A stretch of DNA of 64,000 bases from NCBI GenBank assembly GCA_045577985.1, contig JAZNJJ010000028.1, forward strand, positions 133,403-197,402, written 5' to 3'. Of this stretch, positions 8,906-56,107 are shown in pieces (the first letter of the stretch is position 1; the number at the start of each line of letters is the position of its first letter). The translations under genes and the position numbers were made by a program. The notes under the pieces were generated by a model. That model had not been told where the DNA came from. It saw nothing but the letters and a program-made list of their open reading frames with translations, and ran no database searches. This DNA comes from Alphaproteobacteria bacterium (GTDB taxonomy: Bacteria > Pseudomonadota > Alphaproteobacteria > RF32 > CAG-239).

Positions 8906-9045
8906 TGTTTTCTCCTTGTTTAATGATAATATAAATGGATATTTTTAACATGCAATTCTGTTTATAAAGCCATTAACAGAATTTCTTTAATAAAATAATT
9001 GCACATTCTTTTTCAATATATTATAATCATTTTAGGAGAGTGATT

Positions 9046-10116
9046 ATGAGTATTAAATCAAAAATTTTAACGTTTACAACTTTTTTATCTTCATGGGCTG
9101 GTTCGTCTGCTCAAGAGCAGAAGCCGGAACACAGTGATTCTGTTCCTATCCCAGCAGAAAAAATTACGGATAGAAATATTCATCAGTCTGAAGATAGTTG
9201 TTTTAATACTAATGAAGCTCTTAATAATGCATATAATCTAGCAGATTCTATTAAAGTTGAGGTTGATACTACGAAAATTGATTCTTTACGAGAGAGAATA
9301 TTAACTCCTGAACAAGCCGATAGTATCGCAAATGTGCGAGCAACAGAAAATTTTGAAAATGCCAGATATGATATGTTATGTTTTATTGCTCATTGCGAAG
9401 GGGTAAAAGCCAGAGCATATTGGGATCCGAAAGGAAAATGTTATACAATAGGTATCGGAAACACAATTCGTCCTGATGGTAAAAAAGTTAGAGCCGGCGA
9501 TTTTATCGAAAATGAAGAAGAATTATTGCAATATTTTAATACTCATCTTGATAAATATATGTTCAATGATATGAAAAATTATCTGCCATTAGATTCCATG
9601 GAAAAAGCCGAAATTGTTGCTGTTGGTAGTTTAATTTATAATTGCGGTAGCGGTATATTAAAAACAAAAAACAATGAACCTTCTAATTTTGCAAAAAATA
9701 TAAAAACTTATGTTGAAACTAAAGGTGATACAACCAAATCTACTCTTAATGAAGTAGCAAAAAATAATATCTTAGCATACTTTAGTAAAAAGATATATGC
9801 TGACGGTCATACTCTTATTCCTTTGGTAAAAAGACGCGATTTAGAATTGAGAGTGTTTTTAGGTGAAATTCTTTTAGGAAACAGTGAAGAGATGAAACTT
9901 GAAAACTCTGTTGATTTTTCAAAAGTTGCGCTAGGTGGAATTTATGGTATTAGTAGTATAAAAAAGAAAGATTCTACAGTTATAAGCTCACATCTGCGGG
10001 AAACTATGGGTAAAAATTTAACCGATACCATTTCTTCACAATTTAATAAATTACCTAGAAAATCTTATAATAGAGTAAATAACAATACAAGAAATCAAAG
10101 AGCATATGTGAGATAA
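9046..10116 (+). CDS. Secreted GH24 (phage-type) lysozyme-domain protein
   Basis: HCEGVKARAYWDPKGKCYTIGIGNT fits the E-G-x4-A-Y-x-D-x2-G-x2-T-I-G-x-G muramidase motif, and an N-terminal signal-like segment is present. I moved the start to ATG 9046, 7 nt after AGGAGA (the track uses GTG 9040). Confidence 0.7.
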   Translation: MSIKSKILTFTTFLSSWAGSSAQEQKPEHSDSVPIPAEKITDRNIHQSEDSCFNTNEALNNAYNLADSIKVEVDTTKIDSLRERILTPEQADSIANVRATENFENARYDMLCFIAHCEGVKARAYWDPKGKCYTIGIGNTIRPDGKKVRAGDFIENEEELLQYFNTHLDKYMFNDMKNYLPLDSMEKAEIVAVGSLIYNCGSGILKTKNNEPSNFAKNIKTYVETKGDTTKSTLNEVAKNNILAYFSKKIYADGHTLIPLVKRRDLELRVFLGEILLGNSEEMKLENSVDFSKVALGGIYGISSIKKKDSTVISSHLRETMGKNLTDTISSQFNKLPRKSYNRVNNNTRNQRAYVR

Positions 10117-10884
10117 TCATAACTGGTGTTTTTTAACATAATCATTATGTTTATCTTTTTCCCAATGTACACCTTGTTTAATTGTTCTTGCCGGATTACC
10201 CGCTATAATAGTATATTCTTCTGAAAATGACTTTGTAACTACTGAACCATAACCAACAATGGTGTTATTGGGAATGTTTATTCCTTTCAATATACTGGAA
10301 TTTGCTCCTAACCATACATGATTGCCAATGCTTAAATTAGAAGATTTATTTATTATATTATTTTTATCATCTAAAATAACGTGGCTATCACTATTACGAA
10401 TATGTATGTTTATTGAACACATAACATAATTACCAATACAAAGATGAGTATTATCCTCTTCATTCCAAATTAAACCGCTACCAATGGAAAAATCTTCTCC
10501 TATTTGCATTAAACGATTATCACCTTTTGCAGACATATGAAATTTAGTATCCGAAGAACCAAATCGAGATTTTTCTTTCTGAAAAACATTATTTTTCCCG
10601 CGAATAAAAATTTCACAGTTGGAAAAACCACCAAAAGGACGTGCTAATTTAACGATATTATTTTCACCTTTAATGATGATTTTCAACCCATTTATTTTTT
10701 CATACCATCTGAGCTTTCGTTCTTTCCCATTAGGATTCAATATAATTATTTTATTATTTTTGCCGGAAATTTTATTGGGTGAAAATAAACTGAAAGATAT
10801 TGAACATAAATCTTCTCTATATTCCTTACGTTTTTTCTTATCTTTTATTTTATATGATAACAGTTTAGCCAAGATATAATTCAT
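10117..10884 (-). CDS. Hexapeptide-repeat (left-handed beta-helix) O-acetyltransferase
   Basis: IGNHVWLGANSSILKGINIPNNTIVGYGSVVTKSF...IIAGNPARTIK is an LbH acyltransferase repeat. RBS AGAGGTG. Its TGA stop directly abuts the TAA stop of the convergent lysozyme gene. Confidence 0.8.
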   Translation of the reverse strand: MNYILAKLLSYKIKDKKKRKEYREDLCSISFSLFSPNKISGKNNKIIILNPNGKERKLRWYEKINGLKIIIKGENNIVKLARPFGGFSNCEIFIRGKNNVFQKEKSRFGSSDTKFHMSAKGDNRLMQIGEDFSIGSGLIWNEEDNTHLCIGNYVMCSINIHIRNSDSHVILDDKNNIINKSSNLSIGNHVWLGANSSILKGINIPNNTIVGYGSVVTKSFSEEYTIIAGNPARTIKQGVHWEKDKHNDYVKKHQL

Positions 10885-10899
10885 GTTACACCTCTAAAA

Positions 10900-11036
10900 T
10901 GTCCGAAAAAAGGGATCCTTTTTTTCGGACATAAAAATTTTTTTAGCTTGCAATTTAATTTATTGATTTTATTATGAATTTGATTTTGATTTTTTATAAA
11001 AAAATGTCCGAAAAAAAGGATCCCTTTTTTCGGACA
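10900..11036. repeat. Paired-palindrome cassette, copy 1 (32-nt palindromes at 10900-10931 and 11005-11036)
   Basis: TGTCCGAAAAAAGGGATCCTTTTTTTCGGACA and its exact reverse complement TGTCCGAAAAAAAGGATCCCTTTTTTCGGACA, 105 nt start to start. The same 32-mer family recurs at 30037, 30144, 37313 and 37418. Confidence 0.95.
10948..10975 (+). promoter_or_regulatory. Sigma70-like promoter inside cassette copy 1, facing prepilin-like gene 1
   Basis: TTGCAA (10948-10953), 16 nt, TATTAT (10970-10975). The block CTTGCAA-N7-TATTGATTTTAT is conserved in cassette copy 2. Confidence 0.55.
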
Positions 11037-11053
11037 ATGGAAAGGAGAATATA

Positions 11054-11698
11054 ATGAATAAAATGTGTAGAACAAATAATCAATCCGGTCGTTCAATGAT
11101 TGAAATGCTCGGAGTACTCGCAATTATCGGCGTATTATCTGTAGGTGGTATTGCCGGATACTCTAAAGCGATGATGAAATTTAAAATCAATAAAACTATC
11201 GACCAAATATCACAAATGGTGGCAAATACAAGAACTCTTTATGCCAGACAAAGAAATTATGGTAATTTGAGTGGAAAAGTAGCATATAAAGCAAATTTGG
11301 CACCGAGAGAAATGTTTGAAGGAGGTTCCGGAGATTATAGTATGACCAATGCTTTTGGTGGTTATGTTTATATTTTTAGTACAGGAAGAAAAAATGATGG
11401 GGATAATAGAGCTTTCGGTATTACTGTTGACGGTTTACCGGAGGAAGCATGTATTGAATTAGTTACGCAAGATTGGGGAGACACTTCTTCATCTGGTTTA
11501 CTTTCTGTAGGTATTAATTCCGGAGTAATACTTGGGGCTTATGAGGGATGTGATGGACAATCTGCAACTTGGGAAACATATGCTTGTCCGAATGGAAATA
11601 ATGTTGCAACTCCCATGCCTATTGATGTAGCGGTAACCGGTTGTGATGCTTGTTCTTCTCTATATGGTAGTTGTTCGCTATCTTTGAGATTCTACTAA
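11054..11698 (+). CDS. Prepilin-like protein 1 (type IV pilin / pseudopilin class N-terminus)
   Basis: NNQSG|RSMIEMLGVLAIIGVLSVGGIAGY is a class III leader: a short basic leader, Gly, Glu at +5, then a hydrophobic helix. The C-terminal half is Cys-rich. AAGGAG RBS. It is a paralogue of 37468-38073. Confidence 0.7.
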   Translation: MNKMCRTNNQSGRSMIEMLGVLAIIGVLSVGGIAGYSKAMMKFKINKTIDQISQMVANTRTLYARQRNYGNLSGKVAYKANLAPREMFEGGSGDYSMTNAFGGYVYIFSTGRKNDGDNRAFGITVDGLPEEACIELVTQDWGDTSSSGLLSVGINSGVILGAYEGCDGQSATWETYACPNGNNVATPMPIDVAVTGCDACSSLYGSCSLSLRFY

Positions 11699-20579: not shown

Positions 20580-21284
20580 ATGAAAAAGTTTATTATTGTT
20601 TTGTTGTGTACGGTGGTAATAACGGCTATGTTAGTCTTTTTTGCTATCGAAATGAAATCATGGGTAGTGATGTCATTTGCATTGATATTTTTTGGAATAA
20701 TCTTATACATTTTGGCTTATGATCTTGTAAAAGAACGTTTGAGCCAAAATGATATTTCAAATGATAACATAGACTTACCACTACCGCTTGCGTATATTAA
20801 AGATGGCAGAATGGAGATTTTGCCGTATCTTGATGAAGCAAGAAAAGATGAAATTTGGGGTATCGTTTGTGATGATTTAATTGTTCATACACAAAAATAC
20901 TTTCATCGTTGTTGGTTGAGAGCAGTTACTCTAAGTAATATTATTTGGCTCAACGTTAATCAAAGTGCTTTTTCTTCATATTTTTGTGGAAAGCGCATTA
21001 CTGTTCCTAATGTTGATGATTTCAAAAATATCTGTGATCATTTAGACAAGTTCAAAGAAACTACGGATATTTTAAGAGAATATGGTGTATATGCTTGTTG
21101 TTTGGATGAAGTTATTTATTGGACGCAAGGTTTCAATTTTTATAATACAAAAGACGACGTCCAATGGGCTTACACTTTTAACATTAAAACTCAAGAGATT
21201 AGCGCTGAAACCCAAAATGTCGCTCTTGCTAGTGTAAACAAGTTGAAAATTTATACAATTTATGTAATGAAAACATCAGCGTAA
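20580..21284 (+). CDS. Two-TM hypothetical membrane protein
   Basis: 234-aa ORF with two N-terminal hydrophobic helices. It shares the motif YIK(D/N)GRMxI-x11-(I/L)WGI with the protein at 55577-56107. Confidence 0.55.
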   Translation: MKKFIIVLLCTVVITAMLVFFAIEMKSWVVMSFALIFFGIILYILAYDLVKERLSQNDISNDNIDLPLPLAYIKDGRMEILPYLDEARKDEIWGIVCDDLIVHTQKYFHRCWLRAVTLSNIIWLNVNQSAFSSYFCGKRITVPNVDDFKNICDHLDKFKETTDILREYGVYACCLDEVIYWTQGFNFYNTKDDVQWAYTFNIKTQEISAETQNVALASVNKLKIYTIYVMKTSA

Positions 21285-21316: not shown

Positions 21317-22066
21317 TTATTTGCAATTCTTTGGGGTAAATTTGATGATTTTTACTCTTTTTTCTTCTTTTGTTTTATCATCATTTTTACTAATTGTAAA
21401 AGGATGATTACTTCGAGAAAGATAAAGTTTTCCGTTTTTGTCTTTGTTAAGCTGGTAATAATAACCATGTGCAGAAAATCTTCCGCCGACGAATACTTCT
21501 TCTTTAAGATATGATGTAACATCTCTATCCATAAAATAATATTCATCTTCATCAAAAACAGGAAGATACTCTATCATATTATTTTCAAGCATCTTTACCC
21601 AACATGTGGTACAATACTTCTTACCATTTTCGATATCGTAGAAGTTTACCATATAGATCTCTTTGATGGGAGAAGCATCAAAATCATAGAAAGCCATGTC
21701 TTCTACGACTTTTTGTGACCATAAAGTACGCACGCTACGAATAATAGTTTTGCCATTATTCATTTTATGCAAACAATACACCCACCCATTGAAACAAAAA
21801 ACTTCACCATCTGCAATTTCATGGATTTCTTTTATATCACAGATGTCATCATCACCACTACCTTGAAACACAGGTACAAACTCCGGAAACTCAGTTTTGA
21901 TGCTTAAATCAGACCATACAAAATGAACGTTTCCATCTTCCGTTGTTAGTCTAAGCAGTGACGAGTTTGTTGCATTTTCTAGCAATAAATTAGCCATGCT
22001 TTGACAATATACAACGCATTGATCATTAGCATCACAAGATGATTGTCTTAAAGTTAATGCATTCAT
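21317..22066 (-). CDS. Hypothetical Cys-rich cytoplasmic protein, paralogue A
   Basis: 249 aa. It shares GKKYCTTCWV / GNKYITTCWC and a C-terminal ...NGKLYLSRS / ...ADKLYISKS with the next gene. Confidence 0.6.
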   Translation of the reverse strand: MNALTLRQSSCDANDQCVVYCQSMANLLLENATNSSLLRLTTEDGNVHFVWSDLSIKTEFPEFVPVFQGSGDDDICDIKEIHEIADGEVFCFNGWVYCLHKMNNGKTIIRSVRTLWSQKVVEDMAFYDFDASPIKEIYMVNFYDIENGKKYCTTCWVKMLENNMIEYLPVFDEDEYYFMDRDVTSYLKEEVFVGGRFSAHGYYYQLNKDKNGKLYLSRSNHPFTISKNDDKTKEEKRVKIIKFTPKNCK

Positions 22067-22172: not shown

Positions 22173-22892
22173 TTAACCAATTCTTATGTGAGCAATTTGC
22201 ATAGTACTTTTGGAAATATAAAGTTTATCGGCCTCATCACGTTTCAAAATATAATGAACGCTACCGGCAAAAAAACCTTCATTTTCCATAACCATTTCAG
22301 TATTTACATCGTTCACATCGTATTCTTGCAAAATCCGAGAATCTCGTAAATCTACCGGAACGAGAGAACAAATTTCTTCTTCCTCATTATCCGGATCAGA
22401 TGCATCTGCACAAAGAACACACCAGCATGTTGTTATATATTTGTTTCCTAAAATGGTGCGTATCTTGACCAAATAGGCATCTTTAACAATTTTGCCTTGT
22501 GCTACCAAAAGTGCAGATATTAAATCTTGATTAGCAAAAATTTTTACTGTATAAATGTCTATTTTTCCATCGTCAGTAGTGTTCAAAATATATGAAACTC
22601 TATTACGAAGAAAAAACTCATGTCCCGTAACACGCTGAATTGTATCATAATTAAACATCGGCCATTCGATATTTTCGAAAAAAGCAGGAAGAACACCTAC
22701 CGGTTTGTTTTTATTGATGGCGACCCAAATTAAATGGCAACCGCCGTTAATGTCTTTTATTTTGCATAAAATCACATCACCGGAAATGTTAGAATCTTTA
22801 AAATACGCTTCGGCTGTAGACTGGGTAGGAAACATACATTCCCCGAGTGCTATTTCTGAATAATCAGTTAAGCATAATACATTAGCATTCAT
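22173..22892 (-). CDS. Hypothetical Cys-rich cytoplasmic protein, paralogue B
   Basis: 239 aa; see paralogue A. Confidence 0.6.
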   Translation of the reverse strand: MNANVLCLTDYSEIALGECMFPTQSTAEAYFKDSNISGDVILCKIKDINGGCHLIWVAINKNKPVGVLPAFFENIEWPMFNYDTIQRVTGHEFFLRNRVSYILNTTDDGKIDIYTVKIFANQDLISALLVAQGKIVKDAYLVKIRTILGNKYITTCWCVLCADASDPDNEEEEICSLVPVDLRDSRILQEYDVNDVNTEMVMENEGFFAGSVHYILKRDEADKLYISKSTMQIAHIRIG

Positions 22893-55576: not shown

Positions 55577-56107
55577 TTAAAGCTTAAACATGGGCCAGCG
55601 ACCGATGTCACTTAAATAGCAAGCTGTGATATTATCATATTTTCTTAAGACATTCACAGTAGCATTAAAATTAAAAATTTGCCCATCGTTAAATTCTTTA
55701 TGGATATCCAAATCAAAAATCAATTCATCAATCGGCACACCTTTAAGATGACCTTCTTCATGAATCTGCTCAAGTTCACATCCGGTTACAAAGCAAGGAA
55801 AGACGACATATCTACCGACTTTTATTCCCCATAGATATTCTAAATCTTTATACCAGACTTCATTGGTGATGAGCATTCTTCCATTTTTGATGTAGACCAA
55901 ATCCAAACAAGTGCCTTTTAAAGTTAGTACGCTATAGAACCAATCATACAGGCAAAATACCAACAAGCAAATAGCAGATAACGCTAAAAGCCACCAATAA
56001 TTTTGTGCAAATCCGAGCTGTTCAATACATCGTCCGATAAACAGACCAAACGTAAGTCCGGACACCACCAGCAAAAACTCTCGAAACGCTTTCCAGTAAA
56101 TATTCAT
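55577..56107 (-). CDS. Two-TM hypothetical membrane protein (related motif to 20580-21284)
   Basis: 176 aa with two N-terminal TM helices, then LVYIKNGRMLI...LWGI. Confidence 0.55.
   Translation of the reverse strand: MNIYWKAFREFLLVVSGLTFGLFIGRCIEQLGFAQNYWWLLALSAICLLVFCLYDWFYSVLTLKGTCLDLVYIKNGRMLITNEVWYKDLEYLWGIKVGRYVVFPCFVTGCELEQIHEEGHLKGVPIDELIFDLDIHKEFNDGQIFNFNATVNVLRKYDNITACYLSDIGRWPMFKL

Follow-up and report, generated by a model that had tools for sequence, protein, structure and literature searches.

The window analysed here, a stretch of 64 kb of DNA, carries two divergent genes, one for a sugar O-acetyltransferase-like protein and one for a type IVb pilin-like protein, whose starts are separated by little more than a palindromic cassette. 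The question raised by this locus is whether the cassette is a promoter that can be inverted, so that it would serve one gene or the other. A preliminary description of the DNA had proposed such an either/or switch. The core of the cassette was found in both orientations in near-identical strains, and a recombinase-driven invertible promoter is the reading we favour, with a probability of about three in four.

Architecture of the intergenic cassette

The gap between the two genes extends over 169 bp (10885-11053), with starts diverging at 10884 (minus strand) and 11054 (plus strand). Cassette copy 1 (c1) occupies 137 bp of it (10900-11036) and consists of two 32-bp arms and an AT-rich core of 73 bp. 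The left arm, TGTCCGAAAAAAGGGATCCTTTTTTTCGGACA (10900-10931, central AT), is proposed to be a recombinase crossover site that binds one dimer; the right arm, TGTCCGAAAAAAAGGATCCCTTTTTTCGGACA (11005-11036), is its exact reverse complement. The arms are 100% complementary over 32 nt and bound the 73-bp segment as inverted repeats. Each of them is also near-palindromic in itself, with one base pair (positions 13 and 20) being off.

The acetyltransferase RBS, AGAGGTG (10889-10895, minus strand), lies between the left arm and the start codon (10884-10882, minus strand; read from the sequence), and the RBS of pilin-like gene 1, AAGGAG (11042-11047, plus strand; also read from the sequence), lies beyond the right arm. 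The distance from arm to ATG is 15 nt on the minus strand and 17 nt on the plus strand. Since only an RBS and these 15 or 17 nt are located outside the arms, there is no room for a promoter of either gene there. The gap, the starts, the sizes of arms and core, the outward RBSs and the spacing of 15-17 nt between palindrome and start codon, as given in the preliminary description, all agree with these measurements.

The acetyltransferase-like gene (10117-10884, minus strand) is monocistronic and encodes a hexapeptide-repeat protein of 255 aa (Pfam Hexapep). In NCBIfam, the families WbbJ, Vat, maltose O-acetyltransferase, and WcaF were matched only weakly, below threshold. Pilin-like gene 1 (11054-11698, plus strand) encodes a protein of 214 aa with matches to Pfam PilS (1.3e-13) and Bundlin (4.6e-11), and one below the cut-off to N_methyl. 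It displays a prepilin cleavage/methylation motif, G/RSMIEML (Glu5), and a pilin globular domain, and its homologs carry the name 'type 4 pilus major pilin' and the label 'MAG: Alphaproteobacteria bacterium'. By sequence criteria, the predicted product is a type IV pilin (type IVb, PilS/bundlin-like). The acetyltransferase and pilin-like gene 1 are the two candidate outputs of the switch.

Some further features of the window may be recorded here. A lysozyme-domain gene (9040-10116, plus strand) and the acetyltransferase gene (10117-10884, minus strand) converge stop to stop at 10116/10117, with no spacer and no terminator room for either. Two tandem paralogs (21317-22066 and 22173-22892, both minus strand) code for proteins of 249 and 239 aa that belong to no database family. 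The same holds for a pair of small membrane proteins (20580-21284, plus strand; 55577-56107, minus strand), which have the motif YIK(D/N)GRM in common. An Rfam scan of the window identified two tRNAs only and no RNA family at the cassettes.

A consensus scan of the c1 core recovered the promoter-like element TTGCAA-16-TATTAT (10948-10975, plus strand), which faces pilin-like gene 1 in the window. The preliminary description had listed this element as the single good promoter of the cassette. Its position and its TTG-bearing -35 box hold; its uniqueness is weakened by TTTATA-18-CATAAT on the opposite strand (11000-10971), which reached an equal score of 9/12 in the same scan. Also, 1.6 sites of such score are expected by chance in this AT-rich stretch. 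One promoter serving the c1 core is still plausible, because the TTG of the -35 box occurs only in the plus-strand site and CTTGCAA is kept in the second copy of the cassette. Expression of one or the other of the acetyltransferase and the pilin-like gene is moderately likely.

Orientation of the core in near-identical strains

Eight contigs from eight ENA metagenome samples (L031-L038; also L006-L008) carry the c1 core (10932-11004) as the reverse complement of the window. These contigs were retrieved via exact-sequence look-up of the acetyltransferase and then of P0001, the closest relative of the pilin (95% identical). In L031-L038, TTGCAA-16-TATTAT faces the acetyltransferase, while flanks, RBSs, and arms keep the form that they have in the window. 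The acetyltransferase genes of this sister strain and the window are identical at 767 of 768 nt (99.87%), and the ProRS genes at 1516 of 1518 nt. The c1 cores are identical at 70 of 72 nt, only when one of them is reverse-complemented. The break points of the inversion are located at or inside the arms. The flip thus separates strains that differ by approximately 1 nt per 750 in the near-identical flanks, and it is very recent. The inversion of the 73-bp core that had been predicted from the window does occur, both orientations being present when the window is compared with these eight contigs. An orientation fixed across strains, the finding that had been named as speaking against a switch, is contradicted by the two states between near-identical flanks.

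In one sample, the pilin-side arm of c1 (L031:1958-1989; ERZ28018977) contains a G-to-T exchange two bases from its centre, AGTATCCC. This variant indicates that the arm centre can vary within a population.

The arms have folding potential as well. Read inward, they form perfect stems of 14-15 bp that include a G-U pair and have folding energies of -18 to -21 kcal/mol; runs of T come after several of them. Read outward, the stem contains an A-C mismatch in five of six arms (about -16 kcal/mol), but not in the left arm of the second cassette, which is a perfect palindrome. From these predicted folds, the arms could insulate the switch from read-through and yet let the internal promoter out. A purely structural reading, with RNA hairpins or two operators and no inversion, was rejected because inversion is observed.

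The orientation is constant in the sister strain (8/8 contigs, all consensus assemblies), each sample displays one orientation only, and the opposite state comes from the window alone, so that orientation is confounded with strain. This constancy would suit a rare accident, RecA-mediated or by template switching between the 34-bp repeats, that has become a fixed strain difference. The arms would then be mainly operators, insulating terminators, or 5'-UTR hairpins of a surface-gene regulon rather than recombination sites, as their inward folding and the T runs behind several of them could also indicate. We consider such an accident improbable. It fits poorly with a flip between strains as close as 1 nt per 750, and with a core that holds the only promoter candidates for genes lacking other promoter space. 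Another type of core, described below, occurs in both orientations at paralogous loci, which also argues against an accident.

A family of cassettes with invariant arms

The window contains the arm pattern six times (0.00 expected from shuffled sequences). The occurrences form three pairs, 10900/11005, 30037/30144, and 37313/37418, which are spaced 105, 107, and 105 bp from start to start. Copy 2 (c2; 30037-30175) has arms as in c1 and a homologous core in reversed orientation (z=5.1 as the reverse complement of c1). Its promoter-like element, TTGCAA-16-TATGAT (30126-30099, minus strand), faces GT2/RgpF polysaccharide genes, and its orientation is identical in another assembly. Copy 3 (c3; 37313-37449) is located upstream of pilin-like gene 2 (37468-38073), a second pilin paralog. 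Its arm centres are GGGTTCC/GGAACCC and its core is of a different subtype, with a similarity to the c1 core of only z=2.7 as reverse complement. The consensus promoter scan of the c3-type core gave no recognisable promoter in either orientation.

Three further pilin paralogs, each preceded by the same arm (c4, c5, and c6), were found on a scaffold of a sample in which the sister strain is present as well; these copies are seen in L039-L046. The core of c4 is of the copy-3 type and reversed relative to its pilin, whereas c5 has the same core type in forward orientation, both on a single scaffold. The c4 and c5 pilins do not differ in residues 1-54, and their genes have the same leader before the start codon. 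The arm centre is GGGATCC in c1, c2, and c6, and GGGTTCC/GGAACCC in c3, c4, and c5. Copy 1 belongs to a genome-wide family of at least six cassettes.

The 12 outermost bp on each side of the arms are invariant in the six arms of the window and in c4-c6, while the cores diverge strongly, which points to selection on the arms as sites. An arm is located 15-22 nt 5' of the start codon of five pilin paralogs, the GT2/RgpF operon, and the acetyltransferase gene. Every contig spanning c1, c2, or c3 has kept the cassette there.

Several further genes are located next to the cassettes. A gene at 30266-33145 (minus strand) encodes a protein of 959 aa with many ankyrin repeats and MORN-variant repeats, both of them eukaryote-like repeat domains; its 3' end and terminator (30209-30245) abut c2. 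Another ankyrin protein is encoded beside c5 in L039. Immediately upstream of c3 are genes for a highly charged protein of 724 aa (33818-35992, plus strand) and for a protein of 386 aa (36099-37259, plus strand). Neither belongs to a Pfam or NCBIfam family, and both are kept in the sister strain.

Outside these loci the arm is rare. A pattern scan of 185,579 species-representative GTDB genomes gave hits in one species only, an unrelated Rhodothermales MAG, and a scan of JGI metagenomes and IMG/VR gave no related arms, only unrelated palindromes. This restriction points to a lineage-specific site, not a generic terminator. In the Rhodothermales MAG (L001-L005), a GAAGTGGTCCGAAAAAAC...GTTTTTTCGGACCACTTC palindrome is repeated at five places in one genome. 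In five JGI contigs of 43% GC (L013, L015, L016, L018, and L019), another palindrome matching the pattern is located beside long AGTCCGAA tandem arrays. Tandem arrays of GTCCGAAA that match the arm pattern were rejected as unrelated palindromes and not cassette loci. Exact-protein look-ups with pilin 1, the GT2 protein, pilin 2, and P0008 gave no matches; the related loci were obtained via the acetyltransferase, ProRS, Lon, RgpF, P0001, P0043, P0015, and P0041. A literature search revealed the arm sequence in no relevant context and no description of phase variation for this uncultured gut lineage.

The cassettes also have a motif in common at the midpoint. In c1, AATCAATAAATTA (10956-10968, minus strand) is an exact match to the IHF consensus WATCAANNNNTTR, with its W at the midpoint 10968. 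An exact match is present in c2 (30106-30118, plus strand), and c3 contains the IHF-like sequence CATCAACAAGTTA (37381-37393), which starts at the midpoint 37381 and departs from the consensus once, at W. In all three copies, the motif begins exactly on the arithmetic midpoint (10968, 30106, and 37381). The window holds 12 exact matches to WATCAANNNNTTR in total, and any given 75-bp core would contain one by chance with a probability of about 0.014. The cassettes align almost without gaps once the copy-3-type cores are reverse-complemented. In this alignment, the core columns that are invariant across all subtypes read YAANNNNTTGAT, the opposite-strand form of the IHF consensus WATCAANNNNTTR. 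The distance from one arm centre to the other is 105, 107, 105, and 105 bp, and 105 bp corresponds to ten helical turns.

In the IHF-H' complex, the bend is centred roughly one base 5' of where the motif begins. An IHF-type protein would, on the basis of this motif, bind at the midpoint of the cassette; genes for IHF or HU are absent from the fetched DNA. Bending of the midpoint into a U-turn would place the arms side by side, which answers the main physical objection to so short an inversion. Both the midpoint motif and the 105-bp phasing would be without purpose if the c1 flip were a mere accident.

We infer recombinase type, IHF binding, reversibility, switching rate, and effect on expression from these features, and the proposed switch would operate as follows. 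Each 32-bp arm would be a full dyad-symmetric binding and crossover site for a recombinase dimer encoded elsewhere in the genome. An IHF-type protein at the exact midpoint would force the DNA into a U-turn and bring the arms side by side, and strand exchange at the arm centres would flip the 73-bp core. In the state seen in the window, transcription from the promoter would cross the right arm and enter the pilin-like gene; after the flip, it would cross the left arm and enter the acetyltransferase gene.

The cassettes are about 137 bp long, have terminal inverted repeats and a conserved core, contain an IHF-consensus site and candidate outward promoters, and occur in multiple intergenic copies. 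They might also be taken for a Correia-like MITE, and the difference in orientation for a result of element mobility rather than of a host switch. All these traits are named as hallmarks of the Neisseria CREE, which also give rise to hairpin-forming transcripts (PMC2649163). CREE are mobile, produce a target-site duplication, and are not known to flip in place. No target-site duplication was found around any of the five full copies, each arm is itself a full palindrome, unlike the terminal inverted repeats of a MITE, and the spacing to the RBS of the adjoining surface gene is the same for every copy. The flip has left arms and flanks intact base for base, which is unexpected for excision and re-insertion. 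A MITE is therefore very improbable, and we rejected this reading for want of target duplications and of an account of the in-place flip.

The sixth copy differs from the others. Directly before the RBS of pilin P0041, a lone GGGATCC arm with no partner within 200 nt was found in three samples (L039:12427-12458; L044 and L045:7951-7982; L046:3490-3521). Upstream of it is TTGTTA-16-TATAAA, which looks like a fixed promoter. The lone arm could be a target of long-range exchange, the relic of a deleted cassette, or a sign of a second role of the arms, as its position behind a seemingly fixed promoter suggests. A single arm between a promoter-like region and an RBS in three samples is also what arms acting mainly as operators, terminators, or hairpins would look like, and thus counts in favour of the accident.

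Other observations concern traffic between the loci. The left arm of c2 (30037-30068) is a perfect palindrome (A6-GGGATCCC-T6) with two 'outer-type' halves, as it is in L027 from another strain; unlike it, the c1 and c3 arms have one A6GGG half and one A7GG half each. From its sequence, the palindrome would be the expected leftover of a past exchange between two left arms. In L010:1-90 (ERZ28654271 scaffold_32585), the GT2 start, a single arm, and the acetyltransferase start are joined. This sequence equals window positions 30000-30068 joined to 10899-10860 and fits a 19-kb inversion between the left arms of c1 and c2. The pilin-side contig of the same sample, L037, breaks inside that same arm. 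In L043:1-896 (ERZ27317589 k141), the left flank of c3 (with the terminator of the 386-aa gene) is followed by a cassette, the c5 pilin P0015, and the DNA downstream of c5; this is either an exchange between cassette loci or a chimera. Since the loci share long identical stretches (the 34-bp repeat at L010), both junctions are indistinguishable from assembly chimeras. In each case, the joined loci have arms with one and the same type of centre, which a central-dinucleotide rule would predict.

A broader reading, which is speculative and rather unlikely to hold as a whole, would see the arms as portable sites before every pilin paralog and several surface-glycan genes. They would form a network that flips local 105-bp, IHF-bent promoters and exchanges promoters and genes between distant loci, with compatibility set by the central dinucleotide, AT in c1, c2, and c6 and TT/AA in c3, c4, and c5. 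In such a network, c1 would be a natural, near-minimal and 'recombinase-addressable' switch with two outputs, worked by a stand-alone resolvase-type enzyme with neither enhancer nor accessory sites.

A conserved stretch of 25 nt, AAATTCTTTCTTCTACACAAAAAAG (window 38080-38104; L039:4826-4885), follows the stop codons of pilin 2 and the c5 pilin. It precedes terminators that differ between these two genes and is absent after pilin 1. Gene conversion among the pilin loci may use it as a cassette boundary.

Candidate recombinases and known invertible promoters

No recombinase was detected in the window when nearly all ORFs of at least 120 aa were compared with Pfam and NCBIfam, with permissive E-values for unannotated proteins. 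The enzyme would therefore have to act in trans. The arm may be compared with the symmetrised site I of Tn3 resolvase, TGTCTGATAATTTATAAATTATCAGACA, which has a central AT (PMC4499144). Written as TGTCCG-AAAAAA-GGG-AT-CC(T)-TTTTTT-CGGACA, it has the outer TGTCYGA and the A/T tract in common with that site and is 4 bp longer. The central AT is as in Tn3 site I in the arms of c1, c2, and c6. In its layout, with dyad symmetry, an outer block, an A/T tract for minor-groove contact, and a central 2 bp, the arm corresponds to res site I and hix. Judged by this layout, there is an even chance that the recombinase is a small serine recombinase of the resolvase/invertase family.

Neither accessory sites (res II/III) nor a Fis enhancer were found, the 73-bp core being the only intervening DNA and no other arm-like half-sites occurring in the window; the position of such elements is taken by the IHF-like site. 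For this reason we regard the cassette as resembling res and hix sites in design but do not assign it to either system. Speaking against a small serine enzyme, invertases of the Hin kind require an enhancer and longer loops.

One gene of this family was found in the related DNA. It is located in L044 and L045 (14236-14898, minus strand), between a GT2 gene and the gene for a phage terminase large subunit, and encodes a Resolvase+HTH_7 protein of 220 aa. The gene is 5.6 kb from the c6 pilin and is the only recombinase gene in about 200 kb of related DNA. The best solved relatives of its product are the gamma-delta and Tn3 resolvases (E ~2e-14). Its recognition helix is similar to theirs (SRVTLYK versus ARSTVYK), and the linker before the HTH is nine residues longer, which would suggest, from the alignment, a fit to a longer half-site. 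The link to the cassettes is weak, because the family is very widespread at 60-64% identity and no arm is located near the gene.

The same switch could tentatively be assigned to a tyrosine recombinase, with the arm as a lox/FRT-like 13-8-13 site and IHF as cofactor, as in fimS. The 34-bp arm would then read ATGTCCGAAAAAA-GGGATCCT-TTTTTTCGGACAT, with an asymmetric spacer that is inverted between the arms (GGGATCCT/AGGATCCC in c1 and GGGTTCCT/AGGAACCC in c3). Tyrosine recombinases, among them FimB/FimE and lambda Int, are typically accompanied by an IHF site, and the centred IHF-like site would suit this combination. To our knowledge, the outer TGTCCGA and the A-tract match half-sites of the resolvase type and no tyrosine-recombinase site, which speaks against this enzyme class, as does the lack of a Phage_integrase-family protein in the window and the fetched loci. 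In terms of the arm sequence itself, the 13-8-13 and the serine recombinase readings would fit equally well. Promoter inversions at the mpl genes of Mycoplasma penetrans, with 12-bp inverted repeats, depend on a tyrosine recombinase (cited in PMC3047005).

In Bacteroides, inversion at 7-13 capsular-polysaccharide (CPS) loci is under the control of a single conserved serine recombinase (PMC10403206). The invertons of Bacteroides fragilis, flipped in trans by the serine recombinase Mpi, are, like the cassettes as interpreted here, scattered short promoters with a common inverted repeat that serve surface genes and depend on a recombinase encoded elsewhere. They differ in belonging to Bacteroidota, in the repeat sequence, and in acting as ON/OFF switches for one operon and not between divergent genes. 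The system described here is that of an uncultured low-GC bacterium, with self-palindromic arms 105 bp apart from centre to centre and a centred IHF-like site.

The fimS element of E. coli (FimB/FimE plus IHF) is the invertible promoter of a fimbrial subunit gene and has an IHF site inside the segment. It comprises 314 bp with 9-bp inverted repeats, adjoins its recombinase genes, and is an ON/OFF switch for one operon. With c1, as interpreted here, it shares a promoter for a pilus or fimbrial subunit gene and the internal IHF(-like) site; size, repeats, and recombinase position differ. Site I of Tn3/gamma-delta has the same dyad design in 28 bp, versus 32 bp here (PMC4499144). It is a direct repeat with accessory sites II and III that resolves cointegrates, whereas the arms are lone inverted sites 105 bp apart.

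The paralogous surface lipoproteins encoded by the M. penetrans mpl genes each have their own small invertible promoter, which is switched by the tyrosine recombinase MYPE2900 (cited in PMC3047005). This resembles the proposed action of the cassettes in the per-gene invertible promoter and in making combinatorial expression possible; the mpl repeats are 12 bp long and differ between loci, versus invariant arms of 32-34 bp here. In Ureaplasma parvum, opposed genes (mba/UU376 and UU172/UU171) are expressed alternately via inversion at short repeats (PMC3047005). The mba/UU376 pair is a natural either/or switch, as proposed for c1. Ureaplasma inverts a promoter together with the 5' coding region and so produces gene fusions; here only the non-coding 73-bp core is inverted, and the genes at c1, unlike those of Ureaplasma, keep their own RBS and start codon. 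In the vpma, vsp, and vsa loci of M. agalactiae, M. bovis, and M. pulmonis, respectively, a recombination site is located 5' of every paralogous surface-protein gene (PMC3047005). Re-pairing of promoters and genes as in these loci is hinted at here by the lone c6 arm and by the junctions in L010 and L043. Each of vpma, vsp, and vsa forms a single cluster with one promoter; here most genes come with a cassette of their own, and exchange over long distances is only hinted at.

What is new relative to these systems are the self-palindromic, resolvase-like arms, the size of 105 bp, the centred bend motif, the non-coding core between intact divergent genes, and the host lineage. Invertible promoters are well known; the one proposed here would be near-minimal, with two complete palindromic crossover sites, a 73-bp core, a midpoint bend site, and one promoter for two divergent genes. 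If the enzyme is an enhancer-independent small serine recombinase acting on a 105-bp loop, this would bear on how such enzymes are controlled and would provide a very compact two-output memory element for synthetic biology. In the bacterium itself, the cassettes would tie the choice of a pilin to the sugar acetyltransferase gene and the polysaccharide operon, and a coordinated variation of the cell surface is thereby suggested.
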